Of a stretch of DNA of 64,000 bases, positions 2,933 to 27,182 are shown one piece after another. The translations under genes were made by a program, and so were the position numbers. The DNA is from Dipteris shenzhenensis (lineage: Eukaryota), in NCBI GenBank assembly GCA_047967505.1, contig CM106538.1. The stretch is one strand, 5' to 3'. A model generated the notes under the pieces. That model made no database searches, had not been told where the DNA came from, and worked only from the letters and a program-made list of their open reading frames with translations. Position 1 is the first letter of the stretch. Every line of letters begins with the position of its first letter.

Positions 2933-3097
2933 TGGTATCAGAGCCATAGGCTCTCGACTCTTCCTCATCAATAACACTCTCTGAAGGAAGGAGTTCCTTG
3001 GCTGTAAGGCAACTCTGTTTTTCAGCTCAGTTCAGTACAGAAGGTCAGTTCATTTATTTCTGTTTCAGTTTTTCAAGTTCTGTAGCTATTCACCGAG

Positions 3098-5926: not shown

Positions 5927-5939
5927 CATTGAGGGGGGG

Positions 5940-6563
5940 TGTTAGAGACTCACTGTTCCCACCTGTGAGCCCCCGTTTTGTGGGGACAAGGGGCAGTGAG
6001 AGTAAGGAGGGATGGGAAAGAGAGACTCAGCAAACAGCAGAGATTTGGGGGGGGCTCCATGCCTTCCTAGATGCATGGACTGGCTGCACAGGGCACCCTT
6101 TTATAGGGGCCTGTAGTAGGGCCAGTCGGCCCAACCAGGGCCACCGACTAGGGCCGACCCTGGTCGGTTTTCCAGACTGATTTGGTGGGTCCCCAGTCAG
6201 GGGACCGACCCTGCTGGTCGGCCATACCAACAGGCTCGGGCAGTGCCTATAAAAGGCCCACACTTCCCTTCATTTTGGCATCCACTGCAGGACAGAAAGC
6301 CTCTGTTTTAGGCTGTGCTGTGCACTCAGATTTGGCATCTTCTGACAGAGAGAGTTCCTTCAGTTTGTCTCAGCACTTGGCTGAGTTTTGTATTGCTCCC
6401 CTGGAGCCAGTTTTCTGCCCACCATCCGGTGAATGAATATAATCTCTCTCTATCTAAGTTTTCTCTGAGTGAGTATTGTATCTGTGATCAGTTATCTGAG
6501 TTGAGTGTTGCTAGAGCGGGAGAGGTCTTGGCTGGAGGTTAGAGTGATTCTTTCCTTCTGTTT
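5940..6563 (+). repeat. 3' LTR of copia element, missing its last ~8 nt
   Basis: Matches 2302-2924; ends at CCTTCTGTTT without terminal TCTAACA. Confidence 0.95.
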
Positions 6564-7130
6564 GATTACCCATCCTCGGATTATGGTTGAGTCTGCAAAT
6601 GATGTTGTCAACATAAGGTTAACAACTCCCCCGGACCGATTTGATTACCCATCCTTGAATTATGGTTGAGTCTACAAATGATGTTGTGCCGCAATAGTTT
6701 TTACCCAATGAGTATGGTAAAGATGGCATCGGTGATAGATGGATTGAGCTTGTTGTCGATATTTTCCTTGTAATCCACGAGCACGGTAGATTGTCTGCTC
6801 AGTTTTATGAAGCCAGTATCAACCATTTCTTCAAACAACCACATATACTCCCCTTCAAGAGATATGGCTCTTTAAAAGAGGTGACTGGTTGTTGAAGCAT
6901 CTATCTGTTGATTTGGTTTGAAACTTAGCGTGGGTAGATGGTCATCAATGGTGAGGGACGCCTCCAGGATTAGTGCTAAAGCTTCATTGTATTTGGCACT
7001 TGAGTGTTTTATCATAACTACCTCGCAGCTCTGATGCATGTTTGTCCAAGGCTCTAATGAGTGTTTCTTGGCTTGTCCATTTGACCTTGGAGTATCTATT
7101 GATTAGGGGCCAATTGCAAGGAGCATCTTC

Positions 7131-7815: not shown

Positions 7816-9763
7816 ACTTAAGCACCTTGGACCATTGGTGGATACCAAGAAGGTGGGGCATTGAGCATATCTAACATCTTCCATTTTTGGATCATGCTGA
7901 TTGGCATCCCATTGGTAGCGACGGGGTACCGCAGAGCAAATGTGGGATGCGTTCCAAAGGAAGTTGGAGCTTGTAAATACTCAAGGAGGTACTTTTCTTT
8001 GAGCAATTTCAATCTATGCCAAGTAGGTTGTGGCTCCAATTTGCCGCTTACTTGGAGTGATTTGCACTTGGCGAATGTGAATGGGAATTTTGGAGAGATT
8101 TCATTCTCCTCTTGACTGCATATCTGTTGCAATTCCAATTTGAAAATTATTGCCTTTTGATTTTGTAGCTCAAGCAAGCTTTACACTATTTAATTGTTGA
8201 GCTGCTTTTGGTTATCTTGGAAATTGATCATTAAGCATGCAGAGTTAGAGTATCTCATGTTCTTGAGTATCTAGTTCTTTTTTGGCATTCACAAGTGTCT
8301 CCCTTTGATGCCTTTCATTCCTCTCTACTGCTTGAATTTGATGTTTACCTTCTTTGAGGCTTTTTCACAACTCATTGTTTATGTCTATTGTGGCATTGAT
8401 GTGATCATGTTTAAGTAGCAAGATTTCATTTAAGTGCACCATTATTATTTTTAGATCATCACAAGAGACTTGTATTTGGGAGAGGGATAGCTCAACCTCT
8501 TCCTTTCTGCTCAAGGCATCATATAGCTGTAGGTGTTTTTCTTAGAGAAAAACAGTAGCTTGTAATGCATCCTTCCTACTTTTTGCTAGAGCATTTTGTA
8601 CAAGGAGCTGTTGTTGCATCTGCTCTACCATGCTTTCCTTGAGCCTATGAATTTCTGTCTCTGCACTTTGCAACTTGGTTCAGAGTGATGGGATCATCTG
8701 TCTTTCCATTTCTCATTGCTGCTCATCTGATGCCATGCAAGCCACACATGATCCCTAACAATAGTACCTTGTTGGTGGACTCGGCTTGTCCATTTCCTTG
8801 GGGATAGTAGGTGTGTTTTTTCTATGGATAACCATAAAGCCATACAAAAGTTCTTGGATTATTGATAAAATGTGTGCCTCTATCTAACACAATTTCAATG
8901 GGGCATCCAAATTATGTAATCACATTTCCATACAAGAACTTTGTTGTGCTTCTGGCATCTACTTTTGTTACTACTTTAGCTTTAGCCCACTTTGTGAAGT
9001 AGTTCATGGCCACAATGGTGTAGTGTGCTTGTGTTCCTTTTGCGGCTGGATGTATGGATCCCATGAATACTTGGACACCCTTAGCATTTTGTGTGTGTGG
9101 GGGGGGGGAGCTCCATGATGATCTTGATTTTGTCCATGTCGGTAGAAACCCCTTTTCAATAGACTATGTGTCTACTCCATGTGTGACTAGGAATTGACAT
9201 TTGATAGGGTTTAAGGAGATTCCATACGCCCATCATTTCTTCAGTACATCTTCAAGGCATTTCAAGTGATCCTTTTTGCTTGAGTGTATGCACAAGTCAT
9301 CTTGTAGGAATTTGCTGAGAAATTCCTTGAAGGCGGTGTACATGACCCTTTGAAAAGTGGATGGGGGGTTGCGTAAGCAGTTGATTAAGCTGGCTAGAGT
9401 GGCTCCATTCAGTTGGGGGTGAGTTGCATGTAGATCCTTTACTCTTGGGTTGGTGGTGGCTTCAATCACTGTGTCGATGCTATGCGGTGTTGGTTCATTG
9501 TCCTTGGTTTTGTCTCTTTGGTCTACCTCAAATTTTTCTTGTTACCCATTTCTTCAAGGTTTGATACCAAGATTTCTCCACTTTGGCATTAGGCTAGACT
9601 TCCTTTACTTGTTGAAGGGCATTGGGGGTAGATATACTTGACGTTGTGGCACTTTGTTCTGGGATTGGCAAGGATTTTGTGGCCTTTGGGCCTTTTTCTT
9701 TCTGAGCAAAAATTAATTTTTTTCGTGCTGCTTCCTTCTGCTTCTAAGATTCATACTGGTTGG

Positions 9764-12700
9764 TGTTAGAACAAATTGATGAAGGTATACCTATGTTTGT
9801 GTGTGTGTGCTTGTGTGTCCATGTGTGTGACCACCTGTGTGGTTAGTGTGCCTATAGTAGGTGTGATTGATGATGTGTCAATCAGTAGGTGTGAGTGTGG
9901 AAGGTTTTAGTGGATGATTGAGAGATTCATGGAGAGATCAGTGGAGTGATTTGTGGATCTAGGATGCTCTCTCTTGAGCTCACATACAATGTATCACTGG
10001 CCTATATATTGGAACTTCCTCTCATGAATAAAGTACTCTTTCTCCTTCATTGTCGATCTCATCATGAATTCTTTTCAGTTCCTTCATTTGGTATCAGAGC
10101 CATGTCCTCCTTGAGCTCCTAGCCTTCATTTTTTGCCATGTCATTACTCCTACCACCTCCTTTCTCCTTATTCACTAGCTTGCCCTCTTCTCATCCCAAA
10201 TTTCAAGAGCGTGTTCTCCCTCTACATGCAACTATTTCCCAAAAACTTTGAGTTGTAAAACCACCTTTCAAGGGCACACTCCCACCTCAAAGCATTTTGC
10301 AAGATTTTGCCCCTGCTGCCCGTGCCGATAGCTTCTTCACTTGGCCACTTTCTACAGAATTCTGCCTGTAGACTCAACCATTTGCAAAACCCTCTTAGGG
10401 GATGCTAGATGACATGATGAGCTAGGTGCTCACAAATTTTGAGTGCATTTGGTCCACAAAAGAAGGAGAAAAGGTAGAAAACCCAGTCGGAACTAGCAAC
10501 ACTTCCACAGACAATGCCGCATGAAAATGCACCTCTTCTTCATGCTGGACACTCTCCATAGTAAGGGATTCCATTCCACCAGAAAGCCCTTTGTTTGCTA
10601 CTCTAGAAGTCTTCAATTGAGGCCTCCAACTTCAAACTGTTTAGTTTGGGGAAAATAGTAAAATATATGGTCAAAGTTTAAAATTCTGAAGGGGCAAGGT
10701 GGTCAAAAGTTTCCTTGTTCATCATTTTTCACTTTTGCTTTTGGTCATTTGCTCATATAATGTCTTCTAGCATCGATTCAAGATTGATCTTTGGGTTGCT
10801 GTCCAGTTTGACTATGCTTGACTATGTCTACGTTTGGATGATGAGCTTCATTGACAACAATGATGTAGCCTATTTGATGCTTGAAGGTGACTCAGTGATG
10901 AATGTAGTTTCTATCATGATAGTTGAAGGCTAATTGCACTTGGATGGTCATATTTTGCCTTACATTCATGTATTGCCTTATGAGTTATATGAGCCTTATG
11001 TTTGTACAAGAGTAGACACTGCCCTTGCAATGATAAGTGGTAAGACCCTCTTCATATTCAATCTATTTGAAGGCATATGGGATGCATGAAAGATCAAAGA
11101 GCAAAGGAGTTACAAGATTGGCTACACCAAGAACCTCTCCAATGACAATGAACCTCACACTATGGTAGCTTGGAAGAGAAGAAGGAAAAGGACACGACAT
11201 ACCATCAAAGGGGGGTATTTCCCCACATCTTCAATTTAGAATTTTTGTGTGTGTGATCAATAAGGGTTCTATACCTTGGGATGTCCCCCTGAAAATATTG
11301 TATTGGGTTTTGTAAGGGTTGCTAGTCATTTTGTCAAGAAACCTCCAAGAGAGATTGTAAACTAGGGACGAAAATTGGAGTGAGATCATGTTGGAGCTAG
11401 GGTGTCCAAATGAGTCTACTCCCAATGCAACTTAGAGTGAGTCTAGGTCGGGATCATGTGTGTTGCCACCAGAGGTGGGCAAGCCATGCCATTTCCCATA
11501 GACTACTGCTAGGACTCAAGGTCATCAATTTGTGGGGGGTTGTTAGAACAAATGGATGAAAGTATACCTATGTTTGTGTGTGTGTGCTTGTGTGTCCATG
11601 TGTGTGACCACCTGTGTGGTGAGTGTGCCTATAGTAGGTGTGATTGATGATGTGTCAATCAATAGGTGTGAGTGTGGAAGGTTGTAGCGGATGATTGAGA
11701 GATTCATGGAGAGATCAGTGGAGTGATTTGTGGATCTAGGATGCTCTCTTTTGAACTCACATACAATGCATCACTGGCCTATATATTGGAACTTCCTCTC
11801 ATGAATAAAGTACTGTTTCTCCTTCATTGTTGATCTCATCATGACTTCTTTTCAATTCCTTCATTGGGTATCAAAGCCATGTCCTCCTTGAGCTCCTGGC
11901 CTTCATTTTTTGCCATGTCATCACTCCTACCACCTCCTTTCTCCTTATTCACTAGCTTGCCCTCTTCTCATCCAAAATTGCAAGAGCTTGTTCTCCCTTT
12001 GCATGCAACTATTCCCCAAACACTTTGAGCTATAAAACCACCTTTTGAGGGTGCACTCTGACCTCAAAGAATTTTGCAAGATTTCGCCCCTACTGCCCGT
12101 GCTGATAGCTTCTTCACTTGGACACTTTCTATAAAATTCTACCTATAGTCTCAACCATTTGCAAAACCCTCTGAGGGGATGCTGGATGACATGATGACGT
12201 AGCTGTTGATGAAGTTTGAGTGCATTTGGTCCATAGAAGAAGGAGAAAAGGTAGAAAAACCAATCAAAATTAGCAACACTCCCACAGACAATGCCGCATG
12301 AAAATGCACCTCTTCTTCATGTTGGACACTCTCCACAGTAAGGGATTTTATTACACCACAAAGCCCTTTGTTTGCTGCTCTAGAAGTCTTTAATTGAGGC
12401 CTCCAACTTCAAACTGTTCAGTTTTGAGAAAACAGTCAAATATATGGTCAAAGTTCAAAATCTTAAAGGGGCAAGGTGGTCAAAAGTTTCCTTGTTCATC
12501 ATTTTTCACTTTTGCTTTTGGTCATCTACTCATATAATGTCTTCTAGCATCGATTCAAGATTGATCTTTGGGTTGCTGTCAAGTTTGACTATGTTTGACT
12601 ATGTCTATGTTTGGATGATGAGCTTTATTGACAACAATGATGTAGCCTATTTGATGCTTGAAGGTGACTCAGTGATGAATGTAGTTTCTATCATGATAGT

Positions 12701-13590
12701 TGAAGGCTAATTGCACTTGGATGGTCATATTTTGCCTTACATTCATGTATTGCCTTATGAGTTATATGAGCCTTATGTTTGTACAAGAGTAGACATTGCC
12801 CTTGCAATGACAAGTGGTAAGACCCTCTTCATATTCAATCTATTTGAAGGCATATGGGATGCATGAAAGATCAAAGAGCAAAGGAGTTACAAGATTGGCT
12901 ACACCAAGAACCTCTCCAATGACAATGAACCTCACACTATGGTAGCTTGGAAGAGAAGAAGGAAAAGGACACGACATACCATCAAAGGGGGGTATTTCCC
13001 CACATCTTCAATTTAGAATTTTTGTGTGTGTGATCAATAAGGGTTCTATGCCTTGGGATGTCCCCCTGAAAATATTGTATTGGGTTTTGTAAGGGTTGCT
13101 AGTCATTTTGTCAAGAAACCTCCAAGAGAGATTGTAAACTAGGGACAAAAATTGGAGTGAGATCATGTTGGAGCTAGGGTGTCCAAATGAGTCTACTCCC
13201 AATGCAACTTAGAGTGAGTCTAGGTCGGGATCATGTGTGTTGCCACCAGAGGTGGGCAAGCCATGAAGTTTCCCATAGACTACTGCTAGGGGTCAAGGTC
13301 ATCATCTTGTGGGGGGGTGTTAGAACAAATTGATGAAGGTATACCTATGTTTGTGTGTCCATGTGTGACCACCTGTGTGGTGAGTGTGCTTGTAGTAGGT
13401 GTGATTGATGATGTGTCAGTCAGTAGGTGTGCATGGAGAGATTAGTGGAGTGATTTGTGGATCTGGGATTCTCTCTCTTGAGCTCACATACAATGTATCA
13501 CTGGCCTATATATTGGAACTTGCTCTCATGAATAAAGTACTGTTTCTTCTTCATTGTTGATCTCATCATGACTTCTTTTCAATTCCTTCA
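9764..13590 (+). mobile_element. Non-autonomous LTR element in tandem array (LTR-internal-LTR-internal-LTR), TRIM/LARD-like
   Basis: LTRs 9764-10086, 11541-11863, 13318-13590; PBS-Met after LTR1 and LTR2; G-run PPT before LTR2 and LTR3; 1777-bp period; TSD GTTGG at 9759-9763 and 13591-13595; no pol. Confidence 0.97.
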
Positions 13591-14623
13591 GTTGGGATGC
13601 AATACTTGGTGTTGCCACATTGTGGCTCTCTATCCCAATAATTCCAAGGGGTACATCTGGCCTTACTTCTTGGGAAGATTGAGGCTTTTCTCTGAGTGGG
13701 CAATCCATGCACGCATTGCCAACTCCACAATCTTTGCACACAGATTGGAAAGTACTTGGGCAACCTTTGTGAGGGCATTCAACAATCCGATGGTTTTCTC
13801 CAGATCCAAAATACTTGATGGGTGCTCGATATGTGGTTGGTCTTGCTTGATTGGCATACACCAGAATGAGTCCTTCAACATCATATATAGGCTATTCTAT
13901 TTCATACTCATATTGCTATTCTAGCTCTTTAAGCTGGAGTTGTTTCTCTAGGACTACTGGTGCAAGATTAGGGGCTCGAAGATACTATGGAGGATTGGAT
14001 TTCTCAATAGTTGAGGCACTTGTGTCCTCATAGGTATGGGATCGAGCCATGGCACTTGTCCATTAGGTGCGAGTGCTGGTTGCCTATATACTGGGATTGG
14101 CACTTGTTGGCCCTATTGGGATTGGGGTTGTGCAGTCGTCATATTGTAGAAGCATGTGTTTACATCATGACATACAAAATTGCAAATGGCACACCACAAC
14201 CTTAGGGGTTGGGGCACTTCTAGTGGGTTAAGTCTCTTCCTCAACATTGGGCACTGTGTGGTTGGCCATACAGTGTGGGCACCATATATTCTCTCTTGCA
14301 TGCTGTGGTGGTTGAGAGACACGCAACTTCTTCTCTATGGCTTGCATCAATTCTTCTTTCAATATTAAGGCATGGCTTCCACTCATCCTTGGTGGTGCGA
14401 TCCTTTGTGGAAGTGCTTCCCCTCTTGGAAGATTTCTTATCATGATGACTTGATTTATAGTCATCACTATCATTGTCAGAGTCAGTCATGCCATCCTCAA
14501 TGTCAATTATAGCTTCATGAGCATCATTGAAATGTGCATAGCTGCTACTACTAACTTTTTCAGTCCAGAGATGAACCATGGAATGAGGTACTTGTCGTTA
14601 GGACGGGGAACACACTTGGCTAT

Positions 14624-17110
14624 TGAAGGACAAATTGATGTAATGGGGTGTACCAAGGGGTACAAGGTTTGTGTGTCACCACATGGTGGTTAGTGTGACC
14701 AGGTTAGGTGGTAGAAGGTTCTATTAGGTGTGATTGAGAGATTCATGGGGCTGATTGAGAGATCAGTGCAGTGATTTGTGGATTTGGAGATGCTCTCCTT
14801 TGGGGCACATGCATTGTATCAATTGCCCTTATAAGGGCCTCTCCTCTCTTGAATAAACTACTCTATTTGCTCCATTTGCTTCTTTCCATTATCTTCTTAC
14901 TGTTGTTCCATCATGTGGTATCAGAGCCATGTTCACCCTCCTTGAGCCCTCTTTGAGTGCTATGTCATCATCTTCCCCAAATGAAGCTTTTCTTCATTCT
15001 CTTCCCATAGTTTTTCCTTAGGCTTGTTCTCCTCCATCTCTGAGATATTTTCCATGCCCTCTGAGCTTAAGTGTCCTTGTGTTGGGGAAAATCCCTAGCT
15101 TGGAGGAATTGACAAATGCTTGTGTCATTTGCCCATGTCGACCCACTTTTCAGCCACCAAAAATTCGCACACTTCTCCATGTAGGAGCTACCATTCACAA
15201 AATGGCTCTAGCTACTATTGGGAGACACTACAAGGAGCATGCTGATGAAGTTTGAGCAACAATGGTCTAGTATATGAGGAGAACAGACACAAAAACTAGT
15301 CGAGAAAGGCGCTACTCTCACAGAAATTCTGACGCAGCATTGCGCAATTCTTCGCTAGGGGCTCCTCTTTGGTAAAAGAGATTTGATTCCATTGTAAAAG
15401 CCACTTCATTTCTTGCTTCTATAGCTTCAATTGTACCCTCCAACTTCAGACTATTCAATTTGGGGGTAATAGTGATATTTTCTTCTAATGTGAACAATTG
15501 AATATAGTTAAGTGCTAGAAAGTTTCATCATTATCTTAGTTATCTTTGGGCTTTTGGATGTTTGACCATTGGAAGTGATCTGAGGCATTTTTTAGTCTGA
15601 TCTTTGGAGCAATGTCTTGTAGTTTGACAGTTTTGGTAAATGCTCATGATGCATATATGATATATTTGAATTGCATGCTATCTTTGTAAGGGACTAGACA
15701 TTGCCACATCAGTGGTAAGACCTCCCCTATGGCCTCCAAAAACAAGATAGAAAAGTTTGAAGGAGAGGGTTTTCATACTTGGTAGACTAAACTGAAATTT
15801 ATTCTCATGAAAAAGGGGATCTAGAATGTGGCTAATGGAAAAGAAAAGAAACCAACCATTAGGGAAGGAGAAGCTTTATGGCTCCCTAAGAATGAAAAGG
15901 CACTAGCCCTAATTGCTCTTGGATTGAGTGATTCTTTTATCCACCACATTGATGGGGATGTGAGAAGGCTGCTTATGCTGCATGGAGTCATCTTGAGCTT
16001 GTCTTTGGAGCACAGGGGAAGTGTTCCAAGTTTAGTTTGCTCATCAAATTCTTTGATATGAAATTGGATAGAGGAGAATACATCTCTTCATTTAAACTCC
16101 ATGAAGAGCATATTGACTCAGTTAGCTAGCATCAAGTTTAATCTTGATGATGACATTGTAATTGCTATCTTACTCAAAAGCCTAACTGAGGAATATGGCA
16201 CTATTGTCACTACTCTCACCAATATACCAGAGGTTAGTTTGGTGCAAATTGAAGCATCCCTCTTGGAAGACGAAAGGAAAATCAAATAGAGGAATGACTA
16301 CAAAGAACATGGGGCATATTTGGCCAAAAGCAACTTCAAGGGATCCACCAGCAAGAGCAAGATGAAGTGCAACTTTTGTGGAAAACCTGGACATTTTGAG
16401 AAAGAGTGCTATGCAAAGAAGAAATGTTAAGCAAACCTTGTGGAAGAAGTAGAGAAAGAAGAAGAAGAAGAACCAGAGGATGTTAAAGCTCTCACTGCTT
16501 TCACCACCCAAGTCAATCTTGATATGGGTCATATGTTTTGTAAGTTGTTTGTGTGTGTGGTCAATAATGGTTCTCTGCCATGGATAGTCCATCCTTAAAT
16601 GATTGCTAGTCCTTTGTTTGAGGTTTTAAAGGGTTGGACCCATGGGGATTTCCATACATAGTCATTGTCCAATCTTCCAGTGGTAAACCGAGAGCCATAA
16701 CCAAAGTGAGTCACAAGTTGGGGTCATGAGTGTTGTTAATATGTCTGAACAAACCATGAAGCTTCCCATGTACTAACTGCTCGGGTGAGGTCATCAATTT
16801 GTGGGGGGTATGAAGGACAAATTGATGTAATGGGGTTTACTGAGGGGTACAAGGTTTGTGTGAGTTTGTGTGTCACCACATGGTGGTTAGAGTGACCAGG
16901 TTAGGTGGTAGAAGGTTCTATTAGGTGTGATTGAGAGATTCATGGGGCTGATTGAGAGATCAGTGGAGTGATTTGTGGATCTTGAGATGCTCTCCTTTGC
17001 GGCACATGCATTGTATCAGTTGCCCTTATAAGGGCCTCTGCTATCTTGAATAAACTACTCTATTTGCTCCATTTGCTTCTTTCCATTGTCTTCTTGTTGT
17101 TGTTCCATCA
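14624..17110 (+). mobile_element. gag-only non-autonomous LTR retrotransposon (TR-GAG-like), complete
   Basis: LTRs 14624-14913 and 16811-17110 (TGA...TCA), PBS TGGTATCAGAGCC at 14916, G-run PPT ~16801-16808, TSD GCTAT at 14619-14623 and 17111-17115. Confidence 0.96.
15729..16520 (+). pseudogene. Copia-type gag pseudogene (UBN2-like plus CCHC knuckle)
   Basis: MASKNKIEKFEGEGFHTW..., IAILLKSL.EEYGTIVTTL, CNFCGKPGHFEKEC; stops at 15783, 15822, 16287 and frameshifts; end approximate. Confidence 0.92.
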
Positions 17111-18891
17111 GCTATGAATTTTTTCATTATTCCCAAGCATGTTTTGACCTTTGATTTTTTGTGCATTTCCATATTTCCAAGTTGGAGGGTGGGGTCATCT
17201 TGTAGCCTGTTGGTTTGGAACCTCCTTCTGAACTGCTTGGATAGTAGTGCCCATGTGGCTCTTTTTGCTACGAGTAGCTCTAGGTACCATTTTGAGGACT
17301 CATCGGTTGAGGCCAGGGGAAACCAGGTGGATTTAGTTTCATTTGATTGGTTGCCTCTAGCACAACATGCTACGTTAAAGGTTGAAGGAATCTGACAGGA
17401 TCCCCTCATCCATTGTACTTTGGCATTTCAAATTTACCAAAGTGTCTTCTTCCATTGGTGTTGTTGCATCAGTGTTCGAAGAAATATTTGGGATACAGAG
17501 TGCCATTTACTATTTCTTCTTCAATCCTTAGGTCCTCCATGCTACTTCTCAATGGTGAAAGTTCTCAAAAGTAGGTAGGTGCTAGCATTCATCCTGATCC
17601 AAGGTGCATACACAATGCTTAATTATGGCCTTTGAGTGCATTTGACGGTGAATTCCACAATTGATTTTGACCTACGTAGCCCAAAAATAGCAAAAGATAT
17701 ATGATCTTTTAAGAGTATAGACACATGGGTGTAGTTCTTCGGGCTTGGCTACCTGCATCATATTATCGTCCTATGGAAAATCAGTGTATTCAGTGATTAT
17801 TCTACACCTAGCCTGGAAGTTCAAAAGAATGGGATGGGCAGCAAGAGTCTGGAGGTCGGATGGGTGGGCTACTAGCAAGCTAAAGATCTAGACAAAAGTA
17901 TGAAATAGCTATAATGGGGTGATAGTGATCGAGATTTTGGCAAAAGATGGTAAGGAGTGTGTTGGGTGGGAGAGAGGTGGTGAGGTCAATGTGAAAAATG
18001 AGATTTTGTACGTGAAGTGCATCAAAGTTCATTTGGAGGGTGTGGAAGATTGTGCATGGTGAGAGTGTGTAAGTGTCTAGTTGATCTCTACTATTCTGAG
18101 GGTCGATTCTACTTTGTCCAACTGGTCCATCATGATTTGAACCAAGGACTTGCTCGCAGAGAGGTCATCCTTGAGATTTGTAACCGTCATGTAGAATTTC
18201 ATGTGGAATTATGGAACTTTTTGGGATTTGAGTGGCTTTATTTATGTTAGAATCAAGGGTACGCTCTTGGGGGACTGCATCAGGAGTTGATGCAGGTTCT
18301 TGTGTTACTATCTCATGAATCCAAGCATCGTGAGCTCGTGGATTCTATGTGTCTAGAAGTTTTGGGGCTCAAATATAATGTTTGCCTTGGTGGTAGCCTT
18401 GGGCCTCCAAGAGCTTCCTTGCGATCCAATGTGGGTGAGTCTTTTGCATTGGTGCATTGGCAATTGTCTTGTGGGTGTGGTGATAGATGTGTTGGACTTT
18501 GCTCGTAGAGGGAGTTATCCATTTTGGAAGGGGTGGAGGAGGGATTAGAGACCTTCCCATGGTGTTGGGAAACCATAAATGTTGCCCTCCTTTGTCGTAG
18601 TGTTCTACACAGCGAACGTCCTTGCACACCCATCACTCATGAGACATCTGGGTACTACCCATGGAAATGGGCTTGGAAGAAGAGGTGGAAGAAGAACTAG
18701 TGTTGAAGGTTCACCTTTATTGTGTATAGGGTAATGGCCTTGAGTGGAGTAGGGGTAGAAGTCTTTCTTGGGACAATGAATTGGGGGTTGGGATGTCTTT
18801 GGAGCTTCATGATTATCCTCCTCCAAAAATTCCTTACCCTTCAAAGGTGGTTGCATTGTAGGGGAATTGGTGTCCTCTTTATAGAATGGGA

Positions 18892-19230
18892 TCATTGAGA
18901 TATGCCCACTAGATGTGAGAGTGGATTTTTGCACTTTCTAGTCGATTTGGCAATTGATGGCATAGTAGCATGTTCTCCAAGGATCATCTGTTCATCTAGT
19001 AGTTCTATGGGAAGAACATAAAACTGAGTATCTACCACATGGCAAGCAATGGTTAGTTTGAAATCCACATAACCCAATGTATCTAAAACTTGGCCATTAA
19101 TGACCCAAACTGAAGCAACAATGAGGTTTAACGGTACCCTTATCACTTCCCATACTTTGTGGGAAATAAAATTATGACTTGCTCCCAGACCCACAAGTTC
19201 CTTCACTATGGTATTGGGACCCTACTACAA
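18892..19230 (-). pseudogene. Gypsy-type aspartic protease fragment
   Basis: LVGLGASHNFIS (decayed DSGASHNFI) and downstream MILG motif. Confidence 0.75.
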
Positions 19231-19419
19231 ATAAATATTCAACCTAGTTGGATCTATTGTTAATTCATTAGTCAGGCATAGGTGCTCTACTGTAGCTTTA
19301 AATAGAGCCATTAGTTTCCTTTGTATAATTTTTGCATTATGAATCATGGCCTCTTAGATGGCCTAGCGTTTCATCTGTGCTACCTTGGCTTTAAGCTCTT
19401 TCTCTCAGTGTATGGACTG

Positions 19420-19925
19420 AGAGTCTCTAGAGTGAGAGGACCATAATATCTGTTTTGTTTGCTACCATTGAGGTAGCCATCCATCTCAACCCCATCTAGG
19501 GTGGCTATTCTACATGCACCTTATGGAGTGATCTCCACTATGTGGTAGGGATCCATGCCCCTATATTTAAGTTTGCGCTTGGTGTTACAGATGCTATAGA
19601 GGAGTGCTAAGTCTACTTCTTCTAGCTCCTTGTTCTCGAGATTGAGATCAAACCATTTTTTGTGCCTCACCTTCTCCACTAAAAGGCAATACACTGTGCA
19701 TATCTTATCTCATCTAGCCATTCCAAATTGGTTAGGTGCTTAGCTAAGGCATTTTCGATGAGCCTTCCCTTAACTGCAATGCATAGCCTAGGCACTACGT
19801 ACTCCATTGGCATAAATGCCTCTACTTGAAGGCTAAGCTAAAGGGGGTATAGTTGGTTACCACTTTGTATGATGTTAGATAGGCCCACACTGTTGCGATG
19901 AGCTTGTGTTCCCAGTCAGTACAAC
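19420..19925 (-). pseudogene. Gypsy integrase C-terminal fragment
   Basis: Manual translation DWEHKLIATVWAYLTSYKVVTNYTP ... KRKLKYRGMDPYHIVEIT. Confidence 0.75.
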
Positions 19926-19949
19926 TGAAGTGGCCGCCCTGGAACCTAT

Positions 19950-20290
19950 CAAATGTGCATAGACTATCCTGCACTAAACAAAATCACAATGAAACAAATA
20001 TCCAATCCCTAGGATTGATGGACTTTTGGACAAATTGAAAGGGGCCAAGGTTTTTAGTAAGATCGATCTTAAATTTGGTTATCATCAAGTTTGTATGGTA
20101 GAGGAGGATATATAAAAGACTACCTTTTGAACTCAAAAGGGGCATTATAAATTCTTAATTATGCCTTTTTGGCTAACTAATGCTCCAGCTACTTTTAGTA
20201 GAATGATGAATCACATCTTTCTTAAACACCAAGACTGTGTAGTAGTAATTTTTGATGGTGTTTAGCAAAGACATTGAGGAGCATAAGGAA
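19950..20290 (+). pseudogene. Gypsy reverse transcriptase fragment
   Basis: Manual translation [60 protein letters not shown]. Confidence 0.9.
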
Positions 20291-20329
20291 CATCTATAGC
20301 AAGTATTTTCTTTCTAAAACCTTGCACAA

Positions 20330-20760
20330 GTGTTAATTTATGCATCGACCACCGATTATTGGGTGAGCAAGCAGAATTCCCAAATCTTACATGTGTACTT
20401 GTGTACATGTAGGATAAATATGTAGCAATAATTGACATCCACATGTCCATGTGTAAGCTTAGTGCCAAAATTTGCATGGCTCTTAAGTTGGGTGATCTTC
20501 ACACACTTTCAAATTTTCATGTGCATCGAACACTGACTGTAAGTAAAGCATTAGATTGGTGCCAAAACTTTGCATAGGTCTTCTTTCATGTCACTTATAT
20601 GCTCTTGAAAGTTTTCATGTGCATCAGACACCGATTTTGTAGTGAACAAGCAAAATTTGCACTTGCATGTGTAGGAGAAATATGCAACAGTGGTCAACAT
20701 CCACATGTCCAAGTGTTATATTGGTGCCAAAATTTGCATGGGTATTGACTTGAGTAACCT
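20330..20760. repeat. Degenerate repeats (CATGTGCATC(A)GA.AC.GA, GTGCCAAAA(T/C)TTGCAT, ACATCCACATGTCCA)
   Basis: Motifs recur 2-3 times between 20339 and 20760. Confidence 0.6.
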
Positions 20761-20761
20761 T

Positions 20762-23128
20762 TGAAGGACAAATTGATGTATGTGTATGTGCCTACGGGCT
20801 AGGAGTCCTACGCTAGGAGTGTGTGAGTGTAGGTGTGCTAGAAGGTTCTAGTGACTTGGCAGTTAGGTATGTCAGGTTGGTGTGATGTGATTTGGAGTGA
20901 GCATAGGAGGTAACTGATTGAGCTAATCATGGAGATGCTTGTGGATCTAGGATCTACAAACATGGAGGCAGTTGCCTATATATGTAACCACTCATGAACA
21001 AAGTTGTGCTCATTGTGATTCACCTTTGCCTCATTGTTTAGTCCATGAACCAACATGTGGTATTAGAGCTTGCTGATAATCCTAGTGCCTAGGAAGAGTA
21101 TCCAAGAGATTCCAAGAAGATTCCCTCTTCTTCCCTAAATTCTTCTCATCCTTTCTTCTTCCCCCGTGACCTTGGAAAGCTAAGTTCTCTTCATCCAAGC
21201 AATGGATTGAGAAATCCTCCCAGCTAGACTCTCCTCATGCTTGGACGACCTCTCTGACCAAAGGGATTGTCACAATTCATCGCCATTCTCACGCGCCACT
21301 TCTTTGTCTCCTCTATGAAGTTCTTACAATGCTGGTCACTGTAGTATCTCATTTTGCAATTCCTCTTAGCCATGGCTGGACAACTACTAGAACAACCCAC
21401 AATAGAAATCTAAAGTGATTTGGTCTAGTATCAAGGGAGAAATTGATGACAAAACAGTTAGTTTAGGAGAAGACATGGTTTCTTAGTTGATGAAGATGTT
21501 GCCTCGGGTGATGTGATGCGTCATTTCACCTAAGATTTGTACTGAGTCCTCTCCTCCTATGTATCTTTGATTGCGTAGCAAAAGCCCCAAGTTTGATGCT
21601 ATGTGGAGTGAGGTATCAAGCCTCCAAAGTTCCTCTATTTTCTACAAGCATTTCTAGACATATCTTGAAGATTGATGCTACACTAAATGCTAAGTTGATG
21701 CTTGAGGTATAAAGTGGGGTTGAAGTACAGTTCAAAGATTGCTGTTTCAGTTTAGAGAATGCTCTTTGAAGTTCAGTTGGCATTGATTTCTTGACAACAT
21801 GCCAAGTTCTCAATGCTCTTCCAATGCTAAGCACTTGAAGAAGACTACAAGAAGGACAAAGTACAAGGTAAAGAAGACTCCAGTTAAGAGGATTTGGGAG
21901 AAGCCAACTAGTTATGCATATGCCAAACAACTAGGTTTTTTTGAATTTTTATCTAGCAATTTGCATCTATATCGTGAAGGTGATTTCTTTGTTGAGAAAG
22001 ACTGATCTTTTGTAAAAAAGGGCTTAGACACTGCCATTAAATTGGTAAGACATTACCAAATGGCCTCCAAAATCAAGATAGATAAGTTTGAGGGAGAGGC
22101 TTTTCATACTTGGCAGACCAAACTGAAATTTATTCTCATGAAAAAGGGGATTTGGAAGGTGGCTAATGGAAAAGAAAATAAACCAACAACTAGGGAAGGA
22201 GAAGATTTATGGCTCCCTAAGGATGAAAAAGCACTAGTCATTGCTCTTGGATTGAGTGATTCTTTCATCCACCACATTAATGGCTGTGAGACTACTCATG
22301 CTGCATGGACTCATCTTGAGCATATTTTTGGAGCACAGGGGAGATGTTCCAAGTTTATCTTGCTCTTCAAATTCTTCGATCTAAAATTGGATAGAGGAGA
22401 ATCCATCTCTTCCCATTTAAATTCCATGAAGAGCATATTGACTCAGTTATCTAGCATCAAGTTTAATCTTGATGAAGACATTGTAATTGCTATCTTACTT
22501 AGAAGCCTAACTAAGGAATATAGCACTATTGTCACCACACTCACCAATATACCAGAGATTGGTTTGGTGAAAATTGAGGCATCCCTCTTGGAAGAGGAAA
22601 GGAAAATCAAATAGAGAAATGACTACAAAGAACATGGGGCATATTTGGCCAAAAGCAACTTCAAGGGCAAGAGCAAAATGAAGTGCAACTTTTGTTGAAA
22701 ACTTGGACATTTTGAAAAAGAATGCTATGCAAAGAAGATATGTTTAGCAAACCTTGTGGAAGAAGTAGAGACAGAAGAAGAAGAAGAACCAGAGGATGTT
22801 ACTCTCACTGCTTACACCACCTAAGTCAATTTTGACAAGGGTGAGGACCCATATGTTTTCTAGGTTATTTGTGAGTGAGGTCAATAATGGTTCTCTGCCA
22901 TGGATAGTCCATCTTTAAATGATTGTTAGTCTTTTGTTTGAGAGTTTTTCTTTTTGGACTCATGGGGATTTCCATACATAGTCATTGCCTATCTCCCAAC
23001 TGTAAATCAAGAGTCCTAGGAGTGAGTCACAGGTTGGGGCCATGTGTGTTGCCACATGATAGTGGGCAAGCCATGGAGCATCCCATGGACTACTGCTGAG
23101 AGATGAGGTCATCAATTTGTGGGTGGAG
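20762..23128 (+). mobile_element. Second gag-only (TR-GAG-like) element, 3' LTR absent
   Basis: 5' LTR 20762-21055 (TGAAGGACAAATTGATG...CCAACA), PBS TGGTATTAGAGC 21058-21069, gag and 3' tract highly similar to 15729-16808, ends at PPT relic GTGGGTGGAG. Confidence 0.92.
22060..22824 (+). pseudogene. Copia-type gag, 254 codons with two in-frame stops
   Basis: MASKIKIDKFEGEAFHTWQTKLKFILMKKGIWK...; TAG at 22612-22614, TGA inside the knuckle (CNFC*KLGHFEKEC), terminal TAA 22822-22824 in the same frame. Confidence 0.92.
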
Positions 23129-23825
23129 CATAAGCATGAGCATATGTCTCCTTCTCTTATGCTTATGCTTATGCATGAGCATATGTCTCCTCTTATGCAT
23201 AAGCATAAGCATAAGCATATGTCTCCTTCTCTTATGCTCATGCATAAGCATGAGCATATGTCTTTGAATCTCTTTTATGCTTAAGCTTTCTCTCTTTTTC
23301 TTTTATGCTTATATATGCTCATGCATAAGCATGAGCATGTGTCTCCTTCTCCTTCTCCTCTTTTCCTCTTTCCCCTCTTTGAATCTCTTTTCCTCTTTTT
23401 CTCCCTCTTTTCCCTCTTTCATGCATAAGCATATGTCTCCTTCTCTTATGCTCATGCATAAGCATAAGCATGAGCATATGTCTCCTTCTCTTATGCTTAT
23501 GCTTATGCATGAGCATATGTCTCCCTCTTTCAATCTCTTTTTCACTTTCCCTCTCTCTTTCCCTCCCTCTTTCCCCTCTTTCAATCTCTTTTTCTCTCTT
23601 TCTCTTTTATGCTTAAGCTTTCTCCCTTTTTCTTTTATGCTTATATATGCTCATGCATAAGCATGAGCATATGTCTCCTTCTCCTTCTCCTCTTTCAATC
23701 TCTTTTTCTCTCTTTTTCTTTTATGCTTATATGCTCATGCATAAGCATAAGCATATGCTTTGTTTACTTTCCCTCTTCTTCCTCTTATGCATAAGCATAA
23801 GCATATGTCTCCTTCTCTTATGCTC
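23128..23825. repeat. Low-complexity palindromic hexamer array (GCATAA/GCATGA versus TTATGC/TCATGC) with CT-rich spacers
   Basis: Unit GCATAAGCATGAGCATATGTCTCCTTCTCTTATGCTTATGC and variants repeated about ten times. Confidence 0.92.
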
Positions 23826-23859
23826 CTTCTCCTTCTGCTTCTCCTCTTTTCCTCCTTTC

Positions 23860-25440
23860 TGTTGGGATATGTCAAGGTGTATGCCTCAGGCACACCTTAT
23901 GTTTCTATGTGTGAGTGCTAGAGGCACAGTTAGGTGCCCACAAGCACAGTTAGGTGGTGGAGAGCCACATAGGATGATTGAGAGAATCTAGGAGCAGATT
24001 GAGGAGATGATTGTGGAGCTCTGAAGTCGTCAGTGATGTCAGTGAGCATGTATGAGGTGCCTACTTAAGGACCTCACTCTTCTTCATTCTACAAGCAAGT
24101 AATGCAAGTATTCTGAGTTTGTGTCCACTCTTTGCTTTCCTTTCAGCTTACCAACATGGTATCAGAGCCCTTTGATCCCCCTTGAGCCCATTTCTGCCAC
24201 ATCATCATCTTCTTCTTCATCTTCTTCTTCTCCATTTTCCTCTTTCTTCCCAAAGTCTTTGAGAGCTTGGTTCTCCACCTACAGACGACCATTGCCCAAA
24301 CCCTTTGATCTGGAAACTCCTCTAGTATGGACAAACTTCCACTTGCAAGCAATTGAAAAAAAAACATCTGTAGTGGCTGCCATTCCCTAAACAGCGCATT
24401 TTTCGCCATTTCTTATATTGCTCAATACTCCTTGCCTACTCCACCATTGCCTGAGCCCTCTTAGGAGTAGATGGGCGACCTGAAGACAAAGATTTTGAGC
24501 CATTTTTCAGGTCATTTGGTTTAGTAACAAGGGAGAAATCGTCAAAACTCAGGTTCAGCCTGTAGCAACTCTCTCGGGCAAAAGTGCACACCATTTCGTC
24601 CAACCTCTGTGCTAGACCCTCTCTGGTATATGAGCTTTCTTTTGCTTTAAGAAGCCCTCTTTTCCTTGCTTTGAAGAGTGAGCTACAAAACCTCCAAGTT
24701 CAGCCTTTTGGTTTTGACGGTTTTGGATAAGTTTTTGAAGATGATGCTACATAAAATGCTACTCTAGCATTTCTGGTTTTTTGAAACTTTCAATAACTTT
24801 AGTACAAGTGTGGCTTCAGTTTTGTTTTGAATTGCTAGACCTGGTTTTGATTGGAAAGTATTCATTTTAGCCACTTCTATGAAGCATGTAAGAAGAAGCA
24901 TCATTGTTTGAAATTTGGTCACAAGACTTTGCTACATCAAATGCTTATATTTTGAAGCATTTCAGTTGTTATTCTAAGCCCTGTAAGAGAGAAGACACTG
25001 CCCAATACCTGGGTTAGACCCTCTCATGGCTTTCTTATGCAAAATATGTAAAAAGCCAAAACATAAAGCAATGTCTTGTTATGCTACAAAGGATGAAAAT
25101 GTCAACTTGACTTCCTTGTTGAAGATTGCCAAAACAATGGTTGCCAAAAAGGAACCAACTACAAAGCCAGAGATCTACCCTCTCCTGGCACTTTTATTGG
25201 ACTCCAAGTACAAGAAAAAGATGAAGGTCAGATACCTAAGATATGCTTCTCTACACAACTATGGAGATGACAAGATAATTGTTCTCTTGAAGGATATGAT
25301 TTTCAGATCCACTTGTTCTATCATAGTACCATCTTATAAGGCACTAGACACTGCCCATGTGGTAAGACCTTGCCTTGACATGGATATTTTGCCTCCACAA
25401 GATGAGGCATCCTTTGAAGATTATGCATTTTAAATCATCT
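23860..25440 (+). mobile_element. 3'-truncated non-autonomous LTR element of the same group
   Basis: LTR 23860-24156 (TGTTGG...CCAACA), PBS TGGTATCAGAGCC at 24157, leader motifs shared with the 9764/14624/20762 elements; no 3' LTR found. Confidence 0.88.
25026..25433 (+). CDS. 135-aa ORF starting with a CCHC zinc knuckle (gag nucleocapsid-like)
   Basis: MAFL-CKICKKPKHKAMSC fits CX2CX4HX4C; ATG sits where gag starts in the sister elements; C-terminal part may be fortuitous. Confidence 0.5.
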   Translation: MAFLCKICKKPKHKAMSCYATKDENVNLTSLLKIAKTMVAKKEPTTKPEIYPLLALLLDSKYKKKMKVRYLRYASLHNYGDDKIIVLLKDMIFRSTCSIIVPSYKALDTAHVVRPCLDMDILPPQDEASFEDYAF

Positions 25441-25559
25441 CTATGTATGCTCCAGATCTCTCTTTTTATGTCAAGGCTTTGGCGGGAGTCCTGACGAGTT
25501 TGTAGCATAGATGACCGATGAGAAGGCATTGAGATTCTTCTCTCTGCTATCTCAGAGGA

Positions 25560-27182
25560 CCTCAACAATTCCCTCTCCTACACTGACGACTAGACCTACT
25601 GCCCAGCCATCCCCTCGTGTCCTTTGACCGAGGGGTCATCACCTACGCATGCCTATCGTAAGGGAAGGAAGAGTAGGAGGGGCCGCTTATGTTGTGCTGA
25701 CTCGGGAGATGTAGACGAGTCAACACACTCACATCCCTATAGGTTTCCACTTGGTCCCGAGACATAGTATTAGTCAGGTCCCTTGTCCTCTCCTACTCCC
25801 ATTGCTACTCCTCGCTTCGGAAGCGCTCACATAGCTTTCACTCGCTTTGACTCTGCCACTACCATCAATCCTTCTTACCTAGTCAAGGCCTCTCCTATCA
25901 AATCACAGCTATCGGAGAGATAATAGAAGTTAGAAAGGGCAAAGTAGTGATGGCCACCATCAGGCGGTTGATGAGCCATCACTTCAAGAGTGGCATTGCT
26001 ACTGATTGGCGGTATCAAGATGACCAAAAGAAGCAGGCAGTAATCGATGAATTAAAACAAAAATACCCTAACCCGCCAAATTGGGAGTTTAATGAGAATT
26101 ATATGCACGAGTGCATGGGTTTGGTCTTGAAGCATCGTAGATCAACCTTGCATACTTCCATCACAAAGGGGACGGCTAAACCCAGCTGGGCATACAAAGC
26201 TGATTGGAAGTTCTTCAAGAAGCAGAATAGGGACCATCCCGAAATGTTCAAGGGTCAGAGGAGGGTTGCAAGGAGATGGTTGGACACTGTAGGTACTTCG
26301 CACTTTGGTGCAGGTGGATGGTTAGCATTCGAGGCAACCATGGTAAGTCTACTTCTTCTCATTTAATGTATTGTTCTATTTGTTTTACTACATATTACAT
26401 GCACTTTATCTAACTCTCATAAATTGGATCCACAGCAAGCTGCGATGGGTCGTCTTTCTACAGATGCAGAGACACGACGTGTGTTTTGCATAGGAACAAA
26501 GCCGTGGCTTATTGAGCAAGAGGCAATGGGAGCGACGGTCGATTGGGTTGAGGTGGCTGCTCGCACGGTATAAGTCTACTCCTACTTGTAATCTCACTTT
26601 TTAAATTGTTTTATTCTTTAAGTTCCAATCTAATTTTCAATTTATATGGTTTCTCTTAGGGTCAAAGCTTGAGCATCCCATCACCGGAGGCGAGCAATCA
26701 CCAGGGCTAGGGATTAGATGCATGTGACGAGGGTCAGGGAGGAGGCGCAGCTCACGAGGACCAAGGATTAGGCCAACAAGACGAACGACGACGATGATTC
26801 GAATGAGTAGTAGTAGTAGTAGTAGCAGTTTGCATATACTTCGCCATGTATGTCATTTTGTATATTGGCTCGTTTGAGCGATTTTGTATCACCCTTTTCG
26901 AAAGGGTAATTTTGTAACAAACAATGTTGTATATGTTCGACATGTATATGCTTTTGTTGCTCGATCATTTCATTTGAGCGATTTTGTATCACCCTTTTCA
27001 CAAGGGAAATTTTGTAATAATTTTTTTTTTTGTAATTACAAAAAAAAAAAACATTAGTGGGCAAAATAGGGCTTGCTATGGCCCTGTTTAGCCCCACTAA
27101 TGCTTTTTTTTAAGTTCTGTTAATTGTCGCATTTTTGTGTACCTACACATGTTGGGCAAGGAGACCCTAAAACATTCTAGTG
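25560..27182 (+). mobile_element. 3' part of a CACTA (En/Spm)-like DNA transposon with TnpA/Ptta-like exons
   Basis: ORF 25947-26342 ending SHFGAGGWLAFEATM before GTAAGT donor; GT-AG introns 26343-26435 and 26568-26659; palindrome CATTAGTGGG...CCCACTAATG 27052-27101; terminus TTCTAGTG (reverse complement CACTAGAA) at 27182; left boundary approximate. Confidence 0.6.

Follow-up and report, generated by a model that had tools for sequence, protein, structure and literature searches.

A conserved pre-ATG hairpin in five small long terminal repeat retrotransposons of probable Ty1/copia type

The DNA analysed here, a 64-kb stretch of contig CM106538.1 of Dipteris shenzhenensis (the whole of which is called the window below), is repeat-rich and plant-like, with 35-48% G+C, and holds five small long terminal repeat (LTR) retrotransposons, A to E, which were resolved by self-comparison and direct reading. 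An initial annotation of this DNA had reported four elements; A-D are real, but a fifth, E, on the minus strand had been overlooked. TG..CA LTRs and a 5-bp target site duplication (TSD), in perfect copies on both sides, are present at A, B, and E; the 3' ends of C and D are missing at this locus, so the TSD check covers these three. In a Pfam scan of the 163 stop-to-stop open reading frames (ORFs) of at least 75 codons in the window, matches inside the five elements were confined to B and C, both to Retrotran_gag_2 (PF14223; 1.4e-9 and 1.3e-35, respectively), and no protease, integrase, or reverse transcriptase (RT) domain was found inside any of A-E. Because the LTR pairs are 93-96% identical across the elements, all copies are old. 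The elements and their parts are as follows.

9764-13590, plus strand: element A, a tandem with three LTRs (9764-10086, 11541-11863, and 13318-13590)
9759-9763 and 13591-13595: TSD of A (GTTGG), flanking the whole tandem
10089-10100, plus strand: primer binding site (PBS) of A, complementary to the 3' end of tRNA-iMet
14624-17110, plus strand: element B, complete and gag-only, 2487 bp; LTRs 14624-14913 and 16811-17110, 95.2% identical
14619-14623 and 17111-17115: TSD of B (GCTAT)
14916-14927, plus strand: PBS of B
15729-16545, plus strand: gag of B, broken; Retrotran_gag_2 and a CCHC knuckle, four in-frame stops and gaps
20762-23126, plus strand: element C; 5' LTR 20762-21055, leader, gag, 3' tract, and a polypurine tract (PPT) ending at 23126; 2365 bp without the 3' LTR
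21058-21069, plus strand: PBS of C, with one mismatch
22060-22860, plus strand: gag of C; ORF 22060-22614 (184 codons), in-frame TAG, CCHC knuckle with an internal stop, tail ..EDPYVF-stop
23860-25476, plus strand: element D, truncated; 5' LTR 23860-24156, leader, two hairpins, and an ORF; another repeat begins at 25476
24157-24168, plus strand: PBS of D
25026-25433, plus strand: ORF of D, 135 codons; MA.., CCHC knuckle, ..ENVNL.., about 90 codons without relatives, tail ..FEDYAF-stop
55865-58649, minus strand: element E, complete, without gag; LTRs 58649-58390 and 56209-55865, 95.7% identical; TSD CTCCC
58389-58378, minus strand: PBS of E

All five elements carry a hairpin of the kind that the initial annotation had placed before the ATG. 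The motif AGACAYTGCC-N5-20-GGTWAGAC has seven matches in the window against none in 100 shuffles, B, C, and E having a single match, D two, and A one in either unit. A scan of the window with a covariance model of the hairpin (R1) returned only these seven, at 51.7-60.8 bits, and the next best match scored 10.4. The copies and their R1 scores are given below.

11004-11058, plus strand: hairpin A1, 60.8 bits
12781-12835, plus strand: hairpin A2, 59.3 bits
15686-15733, plus strand: hairpin B, 57.2 bits; the 3' half ends at the gag ATG (15729), and the minimum free energy (MFE) structure shows both helices
22016-22063, plus strand: hairpin C, 52.0 bits
24983-25031, plus strand: hairpin D1, 51.7 bits; it ends at the ORF ATG (25026), and the MFE structure shows both helices
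25336-25380, plus strand: hairpin D2, 55.3 bits; inside the D ORF and nearer to the B copy (82% over 45 nt, blastn) than to D1
56591-56650, minus strand: hairpin E, 56.0 bits; z-score -2.7

In the predicted fold, an internal loop separates an outer stem from an inner one, which is formed by UGCC/GGUA, is longer in many copies, and is closed by a variable loop. The 5' side of the internal loop has the sequence (U/A)AGACA(C/U) and the 3' side AGACC; UAGACA is found in six of the seven window copies and AAGACA in one (D1), while AAGACC stands on the other strand in six of the seven. In B and D1, the ATG directly adjoins the 3' half of the outer stem, and in C it lies a few nucleotides behind the motif. 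In a plain MAFFT alignment of the seven copies, 77.9% of the cells were paired versus 67.6% after shuffling (0/500), and four outer-stem pairs were changed on both sides (18/500); AAGAG/CUCUU, AGGG/CCCU, AAGGCA/UGCCUU, and UGCAA/UUGCA are examples of such compensated outer stems. When the copies found outside the window were included (13 copies), 84.9% were paired versus 71.6% (0/500), slid controls giving 34-50%, and six pairs were changed on both sides (6/500), in an alignment that was fitted to the model and favours structure. Besides this bias, three observations speak against the fold: the z-scores range from +1.0 to -2.7 with only 1 of 11 below -2, both helices appear in the MFE structure of only 4 of 11 copies, and in the common register the outer stem of the C copy pairs poorly. 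The thermodynamic signal is weak, and our case for the hairpin is built on conservation and covariation.

R1 found no hairpin in the four pol-bearing copia elements of the window, and Rfam gave only noise around the D hairpins at E up to 10. A second, degenerate hairpin suspected by eye in the gag tails of B and C was unsupported by R1. An identity as retrozymes was likewise rejected: no hammerhead ribozyme was found and no Rfam family reaches its gathering score in the window; no tRNA genes were found there either. In the literature we found no description of the hairpin, with no paper containing both motif halves, nothing on plants in a topical search, and no Rfam family.

The similarity among the elements extends to the scaffold around the hairpin. 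In a MAFFT alignment of seven LTR copies, the related LTRs noted initially have common GATTGAG and GTGATTTGTGGATCT blocks, a TATA-like box, and AATAAA. The LTR and leader of A and B are colinear in blastn (61% over 1019 nt, E 2e-62), and matches were also obtained for A and D (60% over 773 nt, E 2e-30) and for B and D (58% over 810 nt, E 4e-16); C and D match in leader patches only (E 3e-10). The PBS TGGTATCAGAGC, which we take to be the classical copia primer site for tRNA-iMet, has seven matches in the window at no more than one mismatch versus a mean of 0.28 in 100 shuffles, one each at A, B, C (one mismatch), D, and E and two at pol-bearing copia elements, and it lies 0-2 nt from the 5' LTR in all five elements. 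The leader blocks TTTGGTC..GGAGAA..AAAAC and CCTCCAAC/GTTCA align in all four leaders of A-D, with the variant CCTCCAAAGTTC in C, and the PPT has the forms ..TTTGTGGGGGG and ..AAGGGGAGG. The 3' tract is indeed common to A, B, and C and comprises two conserved blocks, both significant, the first directly behind the gag stop (72-73% identical, E ~1e-7) and the second with the PPT at its end (72-79% identity; E 7e-12 to 1e-19). A pol C-terminus as the source of this tract was rejected, because comparison with eight polyprotein C-termini and the ends of the window copia elements gave nothing below E 0.01.

The similarities of LTR cores, leader blocks, hairpin, and PPT-proximal tract are all far beyond chance. 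The initial idea of one lineage with one scaffold is not supported, since the LTR/leader scaffolds are only 43-67% identical and would thus belong to at least four old families. The idea of non-autonomous elements that keep their cis signals stands (LTR ends, PBS, leader, hairpin, and PPT tract are all kept). A swapped cargo of another kind is not supported: D probably holds a gag remnant, and the corresponding segments of A and E match nothing.

B and C are the two elements with gag, and the gag of about 254 codons attributed to them is there in both and intact in neither. In B, the two Pfam fragments (1.4e-9 and 2.4e-4) and a gag profile hidden Markov model (HMM; 1.4e-67) identify a reading frame broken by four stops and gaps; the gag of C is open for 184 codons and would span about 267 codons if its three stops were read through. 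The ratio of nonsynonymous to synonymous substitution (dN/dS), calculated for gag only, is 0.43 between B and C over 257 codons, with a dS of 0.156; the ratio suggests that the ancestors of B and C were coding and that gag was once under constraint. Both elements are smaller than 4 kb and have no RT or integrase, as in terminal-repeat retrotransposons with a GAG domain (TR-GAGs), B alone being complete. Judging from their sequences, B and C are degenerate, not functional, members of the TR-GAG type. No second copy of the C LTR exists in the window. Contigs of sequencing runs were compared over positions 9500-26000 (the runs have small shares, 0.05-0.14, and no RNA run is among them), and because a contig of run X3 joins the PPT of C to a C-type LTR, C has lost its 3' LTR at this locus.

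The gags of B and C have an in-frame TAG in common (16284-16289 and 22612-22617, respectively), which follows ..EE(E/D)RKIK and separates the gag core from the zinc knuckle. Downstream of it, nucleotide identity between B and C is 93.7% versus 90.7% upstream, and dN/dS is 0.29 (76 codons, only 12 changes) versus 0.48 upstream. Two database relatives, P0004 and P0009, terminate at the same position, which could be contig ends. This TAG may be a leaky stop or an inherited defect.

Comparison of the elements module by module showed that B has two different nearest relatives. The global identities, for which shuffled maxima were 43-54%, are as follows.

LTR identity (%): A-B 67.3, B-C 53.5, A-C 53.6, A-D 50.7, B-D 49.8, C-D 42.9
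Leader identity (%): A-B 54.4, B-C 45.6, A-C 45.0, A-D 51.1, C-D 50.2, B-D 49.2
Hairpin-to-PPT cassette identity (%): B-C 88.7 (1041 nt), A-B 57.0, all other pairs 42-57

B groups with A by LTR and leader, and with C by the cassette from the hairpin to the PPT. The LTRs and leaders of B and C are near the level of random alignment, and along the leader B-A identity exceeded B-C identity in 12 of 16 windows, with one tie. The high similarity of B and C starts at the hairpin (15688/22018) and stops at the PPT. From two neutral measures for B-C, a dS of 0.156 and 80% identity in the non-coding 3' tract, one would expect LTRs about 80-85% identical, but 53% is observed; either the cassette or the LTR and leader have therefore been exchanged. 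This pattern fits cassettes that moved between scaffolds, or that were converted between neighbours. In an exchange of the inner cassette between scaffolds, RT would have switched templates while copying co-packaged RNAs, finding homology in the two conserved blocks on either side of the cassette, and we narrowly favour such template switching as the most likely route. Template switching that yields new combinations of LTRs and inner regions has been described for elements of this kind (PMC13570524).

The alternative is that no exchange between families took place and that ectopic gene conversion between the neighbours B and C homogenised the stretch from gag to the PPT after insertion. B and C lie 3.7 kb apart (about 6.1 kb from start to start) on the same strand, a proximity that counts against exchange because conversion could mimic it, and the two units of A also diverge unevenly (about 11% in one part and four mismatches in another), as local conversion would yield, so local homogenisation may occur here. 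However, the B-C cassette still differs by 11% (dS 0.156), so any conversion is old; the converted stretch, 1.1 kb in length, would have its two limits precisely at conserved blocks, the hairpin and the PPT; and LTRs and leaders at 46-54% identity offer little homology for starting it. We therefore think conversion a rather unlikely explanation for the B-C cassette, and prefer exchange by template switching.

Element D does not follow directly on C, as had been assumed. The start of the D LTR is fixed by a contig of run X2, in which a PPT immediately precedes 23860, and the following sequence separates the two elements.

23127-23859, no strand assigned: minisatellite-like filler, 733 bp between the PPT of C and the LTR of D, with partly palindromic units of 39-45 nt; it is in the LTR of neither element

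The filler units read GCATAAGCAT..ATGTCTCC..CTTATGC and are accompanied by CT-rich runs; contigs of run X1 cover the filler at high summed depth, with rearranged joints. At the other end of D, loose contig ends lie at 25475/25476 in runs X1, X2, and X3. The D ORF is covered at 97-99% in these runs (e.g., 25002-25375, with seven differences), and such contigs continue past 25476 into a different, 3'-tract-like sequence. D of the window is therefore interrupted at this point, and the contigs stem from further copies or else from this locus in a form that lacks the insertion. For the LTR and leader of D, as many as 12 distinct contigs overlap at a single position in one run, and a 3.7-kb contig of another organism follows this LTR and leader at about 93% until the match ends at the ATG (25031). 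The interrupting repeat (25477-26400) is multi-copy in runs X1 and X3 and holds an ORF of 138 codons (25950-26366) without a Pfam match.

The initial annotation was right that the 135-codon ORF of D begins with a CCHC knuckle, but not that it is a different cargo; it is probably a gag remnant with its core missing, judging from the two ends of the predicted protein. It starts with MAFL and CX2CX4HX4C, the following ..ENVNL.. is comparable to ..CLANLVEE.. in C, and the tail ..FEDYAF-stop resembles the family tails ..EEWAF-stop and ..DEYAF-stop. The only match of D to a profile of 22 gag-only relatives is in the knuckle (E 2.7e-5, with 30 frames scanned), where tblastn against the B knuckle gave 46% over 24 aa (E 0.13). 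The D ORF also has a weak tblastn match to the knuckle-to-protease stretch of a copia element at 63633-63914 (28% over 95 aa, E 0.028), and neither a homologue of near length nor an Atlas match was found. The orphan part of about 90 codons contains the second hairpin. What speaks against the kinship of D with gag is that it is drawn from a zinc knuckle, a common motif, and a tail of five residues.

Element A is a single insertion with three LTRs, two inner units of 1777 nt, and one TSD around the whole, and thus has the structure of a tandem (3-LTR) LTR retrotransposon. The two units are 94.4% identical (95 mismatches, no indel), the LTR pairs are 93.4-96.0% identical, and the second unit has a mutated PBS copy near 11866. 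Divergence between the units is uneven, being about 11% in 10164-10664 with only four mismatches in 10864-11464, the stretch that holds the hairpin, the short segment behind it, and the 3' tract; gene conversion or a mosaic origin could account for this. One unit plus LTR is about 2.1 kb in size, between a terminal-repeat retrotransposon in miniature (TRIM, <1-2 kb) and a large retrotransposon derivative (LARD, >4 kb), and without domain matches. The gag-like relic proposed at 11054-11239 was not borne out, with no significant similarity to gag (E 0.2-2.5 by profile HMM, none by blastn), and the FEG.WDA likeness cannot be told from chance; no Pfam domain was found in the A ORFs and no gag by profile HMM. 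The 197-nt segment behind the hairpin has no match in the whole window beyond the hairpin itself and none by gag HMM, and A retains ATA where other elements have ATG.

Element E is 2.8 kb in size, again between TRIM and LARD, and its 3' LTR carries an insertion of about 87 nt. Its five ORFs have no Pfam match, no gag was found by HMM, and it has no blastn similarity to A-D; the segment of about 400 nt behind its hairpin has no match in the window beyond the hairpin itself. The common ground of E with A-D consists only of the PBS, the hairpin, and the type of LTR terminus.

The gag of C has 4576 relatives at E of 1e-3 or less among 1.84 billion representatives, one of them a hypothetical protein of the fern Adiantum nelumboides. 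None of the 11 best exceeds 317 aa (41-67% identity), a complete polyprotein (>1200 aa) first appears at rank 48 (36%), and the best match in 90% clusters is a protein of 277 aa (59%). Among the relatives of 230-330 aa, 7 of 49 end in [WY]AF and 21 of 49 in F. Because 15 of 18 long relatives have W-x-x-D-[ST]-G-A at the matching position, the gag-only ORFs stop at the position of the protease catalytic Asp. This common truncation point could reflect one old origin of the gag-only form, and the relatives as a set fit an old gag-only clade, for which short contigs or separately called gag ORFs of autonomous elements could also account. The gag-only relatives ending in ..[WY]AF-stop are P0001, P0003, P0006, P0017, P0031, P0046, P0094, and P0157. 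A pattern search for gag relatives in metagenome contigs gave 438 matches, none of which was confirmed.

Outside the window, the hairpin pattern had no match in viral contigs and 36 in metagenome contigs, 4 of the 36 in retroelements (L011, L017, L004, and L031), while the other 32 look like chance matches. As a null, a like pattern gave 93 matches in prokaryote genomes, and among the 80 scored with R1 the best reached 28.7 and 27.7 bits, the former in an ordinary bacterial gene. L011 (best copy 46.5 bits) carries the hairpin three times in tandem (890-1116), and the last copy stops at the ATG of a gag related to that of C (43% identity, E 3e-18; Pfam 1.8e-12), and in the third copy a C-G pair of the inner stem is changed to A-U. 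The case of L011, with hairpin and related gag together, is solid. L017 (30.4 bits) is a gag-less mini-element in which the hairpin is followed by about 250 nt more, a PPT, and then the second LTR; its LTR starts like that of D (TGTTGGGAATATGTCAA vs. TGTTGGGATATGTCAA) and its PBS is of the iMet type (TGGTATCAGAGT), while its hairpin is marginal by score. In L004 (702-753) and L031 (3058-3109), both at 28.1 bits, the motif has a closing stem and immediately follows the end of pol in a Ty3/gypsy chromovirus (RVT_1, RNase H, integrase, and chromo), about 110 nt before the PPT, and its UAG is the pol stop codon. Because the best prokaryote null scores are 28.7 and 27.7 bits, these two are not significant by score and are no better than chance in that respect; only their retroelement context makes them a lead.

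Judging from these observations, we consider it likely that A-E are five old, dead, non-autonomous Ty1/copia-type elements from at least four related families. B and C are of the TR-GAG type, A and E are of a gag-less long-TRIM or small-LARD type, and D probably has a gag remnant with the core missing. The copia-type features are the TG..CA LTRs with a 5-bp TSD, the iMet PBS with a PPT, and, in B and C only, a PF14223 gag. The hairpin is kept in the gag-less A and E and doubled in D, and the gag-less and reduced forms would have arisen through loss of gag sequence behind it. RT and integrase would be supplied in trans by some copia element, and Gag may be supplied by members of the B/C type. 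Two points weigh against this view: each family is in view from a single copy within the 64-kb window, and the post-hairpin segments of A and E match nothing, so that gag loss is there something we infer.

A copia helper, which the initial annotation had proposed, is likewise inferred only. Four pol-bearing copia remnants are present in the window, at 2298-6563 (plus strand), ~37300-41560, 43126-48695, and 61400-64000 (all minus strand), all without the hairpin; the gags of two of them, aligned over most of their length, are 25-27% identical to that of C, and the other two gave only short local matches. No autonomous partner sharing the scaffold was found within the 64-kb window. The elements might instead be independent internal-deletion products of several autonomous copia families, their common blocks being general to that copia lineage, so that there would be no parasitic lineage of their own. 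Consistent with this, the type of LTR terminus (TGTTAG/TGTTGG..CA) and the iMet PBS are also present in the pol-bearing copia element at 2298-6563, and the scaffolds are as little as 43-67% identical. However, the pol-bearing elements lack the hairpin and their two alignable gags are distant from that of C, the nearest database relatives of this gag are all of gag-only size with a common stop position, and forms with hairpin plus gag and with hairpin but without gag recur in two outside contigs (L011 and L017). Independent deletion is on balance unlikely, and we keep to related non-autonomous families.

The TR-GAG1 / TRIM-1-S elements of Coffea canephora (Chaparro et al., 2015; PMC4350172) are LTR elements of <4 kb with a PBS, a PPT, and a 5-bp TSD, whose single ORF encodes a copia-type GAG (UBN2/PF14223) with a zinc knuckle and a faint C-terminal likeness to protease. 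The article also describes a sister form without gag, otherwise alike ("conserved except for the GAG domain"), and reports that no autonomous partner was found (PMC4350172). The initial statement that TR-GAG and TRIM/LARD elements are known only separately is therefore wrong, going by this published sister form (PMC4350172). TR-GAG1 differs in its tRNA-Leu PBS, LTRs of 485 bp, and ORF of 433 aa (PMC4350172), compared with the iMet PBS, LTRs of about 290-320 bp, gag of about 267 codons, and conserved pre-AUG hairpin of the window elements. The sister forms are diverged families in the window, while in the TR-GAG1 system they are near-identical (PMC4350172). Against a signal general to TR-GAGs, the same article states that a packaging or dimerisation structure was sought in the TR-GAG1 leader and none was found (PMC4350172).

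Sugar beet has non-autonomous LTR elements that form modular groups and include chimeric and tandem members (Maiwald et al., 2026; PMC13570524). They resemble those of the window in 3-LTR tandems that keep the TSD (73 of 97 tandem copies), in families tied by regional similarity with hybrids of LTRs and inner regions, and in patchy GAG/PROT remnants, most families being without a traceable autonomous partner. They differ in host and families, and the article reports no conserved RNA structure at a module boundary; it also states that no term exists for non-coding LTR elements of 1.5-4 kb (PMC13570524). Gag-only and gag-less sister forms, 3-LTR tandems, and mosaic families are thus already described.

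The recognition and packaging of enzyme-less plant LTR retrotransposons by a helper is largely obscure. In barley, the BARE-2/BARE-1 pair, studied by Tanskanen and colleagues in 2007, is reportedly one in which a copia-type element uses the proteins of its partner and keeps the cis signals for packaging and reverse transcription. BARE-2 is said to have no working gag and to have kept pol, whereas the window elements are without pol and some have gag. The hairpin is a concrete candidate for a cis signal and is the main interest of this cluster: it is kept with and without gag, ends at the gag AUG, is present in one to three copies per element, coincides with the module boundary, and recurs with a related gag in outside DNA. 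It would act as a cis-acting signal of the genomic RNA, with a two-helix stem and AGAC on both strands of the internal loop. We tentatively regard it as a candidate packaging or dimerisation signal bound by Gag or nucleocapsid (NC), one that would also cover the gag start site, and give this role somewhat less than even weight. More doubtful is a wider role, in which the hairpin would be a portable protein-binding module (for packaging, dimerisation, or export) of a widespread gag-only copia clade, would mark the boundary of cassette swaps by RT, and would possibly have been acquired by the Ty3/gypsy chromovirus of L004 and L031. If this were true, a portable hairpin would both set who parasitises whom and create the slot for the cassette.

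The hairpin might also bind a host factor instead of Gag, for example for nuclear export of unspliced RNA in the manner of a constitutive transport element (CTE), or might hide a 5' splice site G|GUAAG. The letters GGUAAG fit the core of a splice donor well, and the CTE of Mason-Pfizer monkey virus (MPMV) lies behind pol; the L004/L031 motif, just behind a gypsy pol stop and about 110 nt before the PPT, has a like position. The internal loop reads U/A-AGACA (AAGACA in D1) on one strand and AAGACC on the other, and the hairpin is present in one, two, or three copies per element. In the MPMV, NXF1-intron, and gammaretroviral CTEs, NXF1 binds AAGACA located in an internal loop, and the CTE works in multiple copies (PMC4174252, PMC4330393, PMC7551171). 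Like retroviral packaging signals next to the gag AUG, the window hairpin is a predicted structured element of unspliced RNA with purine-rich unpaired residues, placed at or near the gag start. According to the same articles, a CTE is 150-175 nt long with two loops in two-fold symmetry, whereas the window hairpin is about 45-60 nt with one loop, and the likeness is by few letters, a 5-6-mer in the loop. The gypsy instance, at 28.1 bits, is moreover no better than the best 2 of 80 chance prokaryote matches, and the GU of the presumed splice site is lost in D1 (GGGUUAG) and in the third copy of L011 (GUUAAG), the change preserving pairing instead. Land plants are not known to have an NXF1 orthologue, and the host looks plant-like. 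We hold a host factor or a hidden splice site to be improbable, and a Gag/NC-binding signal remains our preferred candidate.

It is very improbable that the short forms are single-locus deletions that followed the insertion of gag elements: all copies are old (LTR pairs 93-96%) and C and D are visibly damaged at this locus, but both tandem units of A have the short inner part, positions 12960-13078 of A are matched by a diverged contig of run X1 (11 differences, two gaps), the D ORF region is found at 97-99% in contigs of three runs (which could be the same locus without the insertion), the D LTR and leader are in up to 12 distinct contigs of one run, and L017 is a complete gag-less element of like build. 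For the gag-less forms in particular, these sequences make such a deletion unlikely.

Other repeats of the window may be noted briefly. The copia element at 2298-6563 has LTRs of 628 bp (2298-2925 and 5936-6563, 96.8% identical) and contains gag (346 aa, at 3086-4123), GAG-pre-integrase, and a partial integrase, without RT. It is flanked on both outer sides by a 174-bp sequence (2128-2301 and 6561-6734; 97%) and not by a normal 5-bp TSD; this sequence contains a tandem repeat of about 85 nt, and at the junction the 3' LTR is truncated. A 129-bp tandem duplication of 100% identity (41305-41562) adjoins the gag end of the minus-strand copia element at ~37300-41560. Contigs of run X7, from another organism, cover 19418-20519 at a summed depth of about 1500, which indicates a high-copy repeat there, and a 92-nt direct repeat is located at 20408/20670. 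Remnants of a gypsy-type RNase H (36104-36430, plus strand) and of a hAT transposase dimerisation domain (52236-52460, minus strand) are also present.

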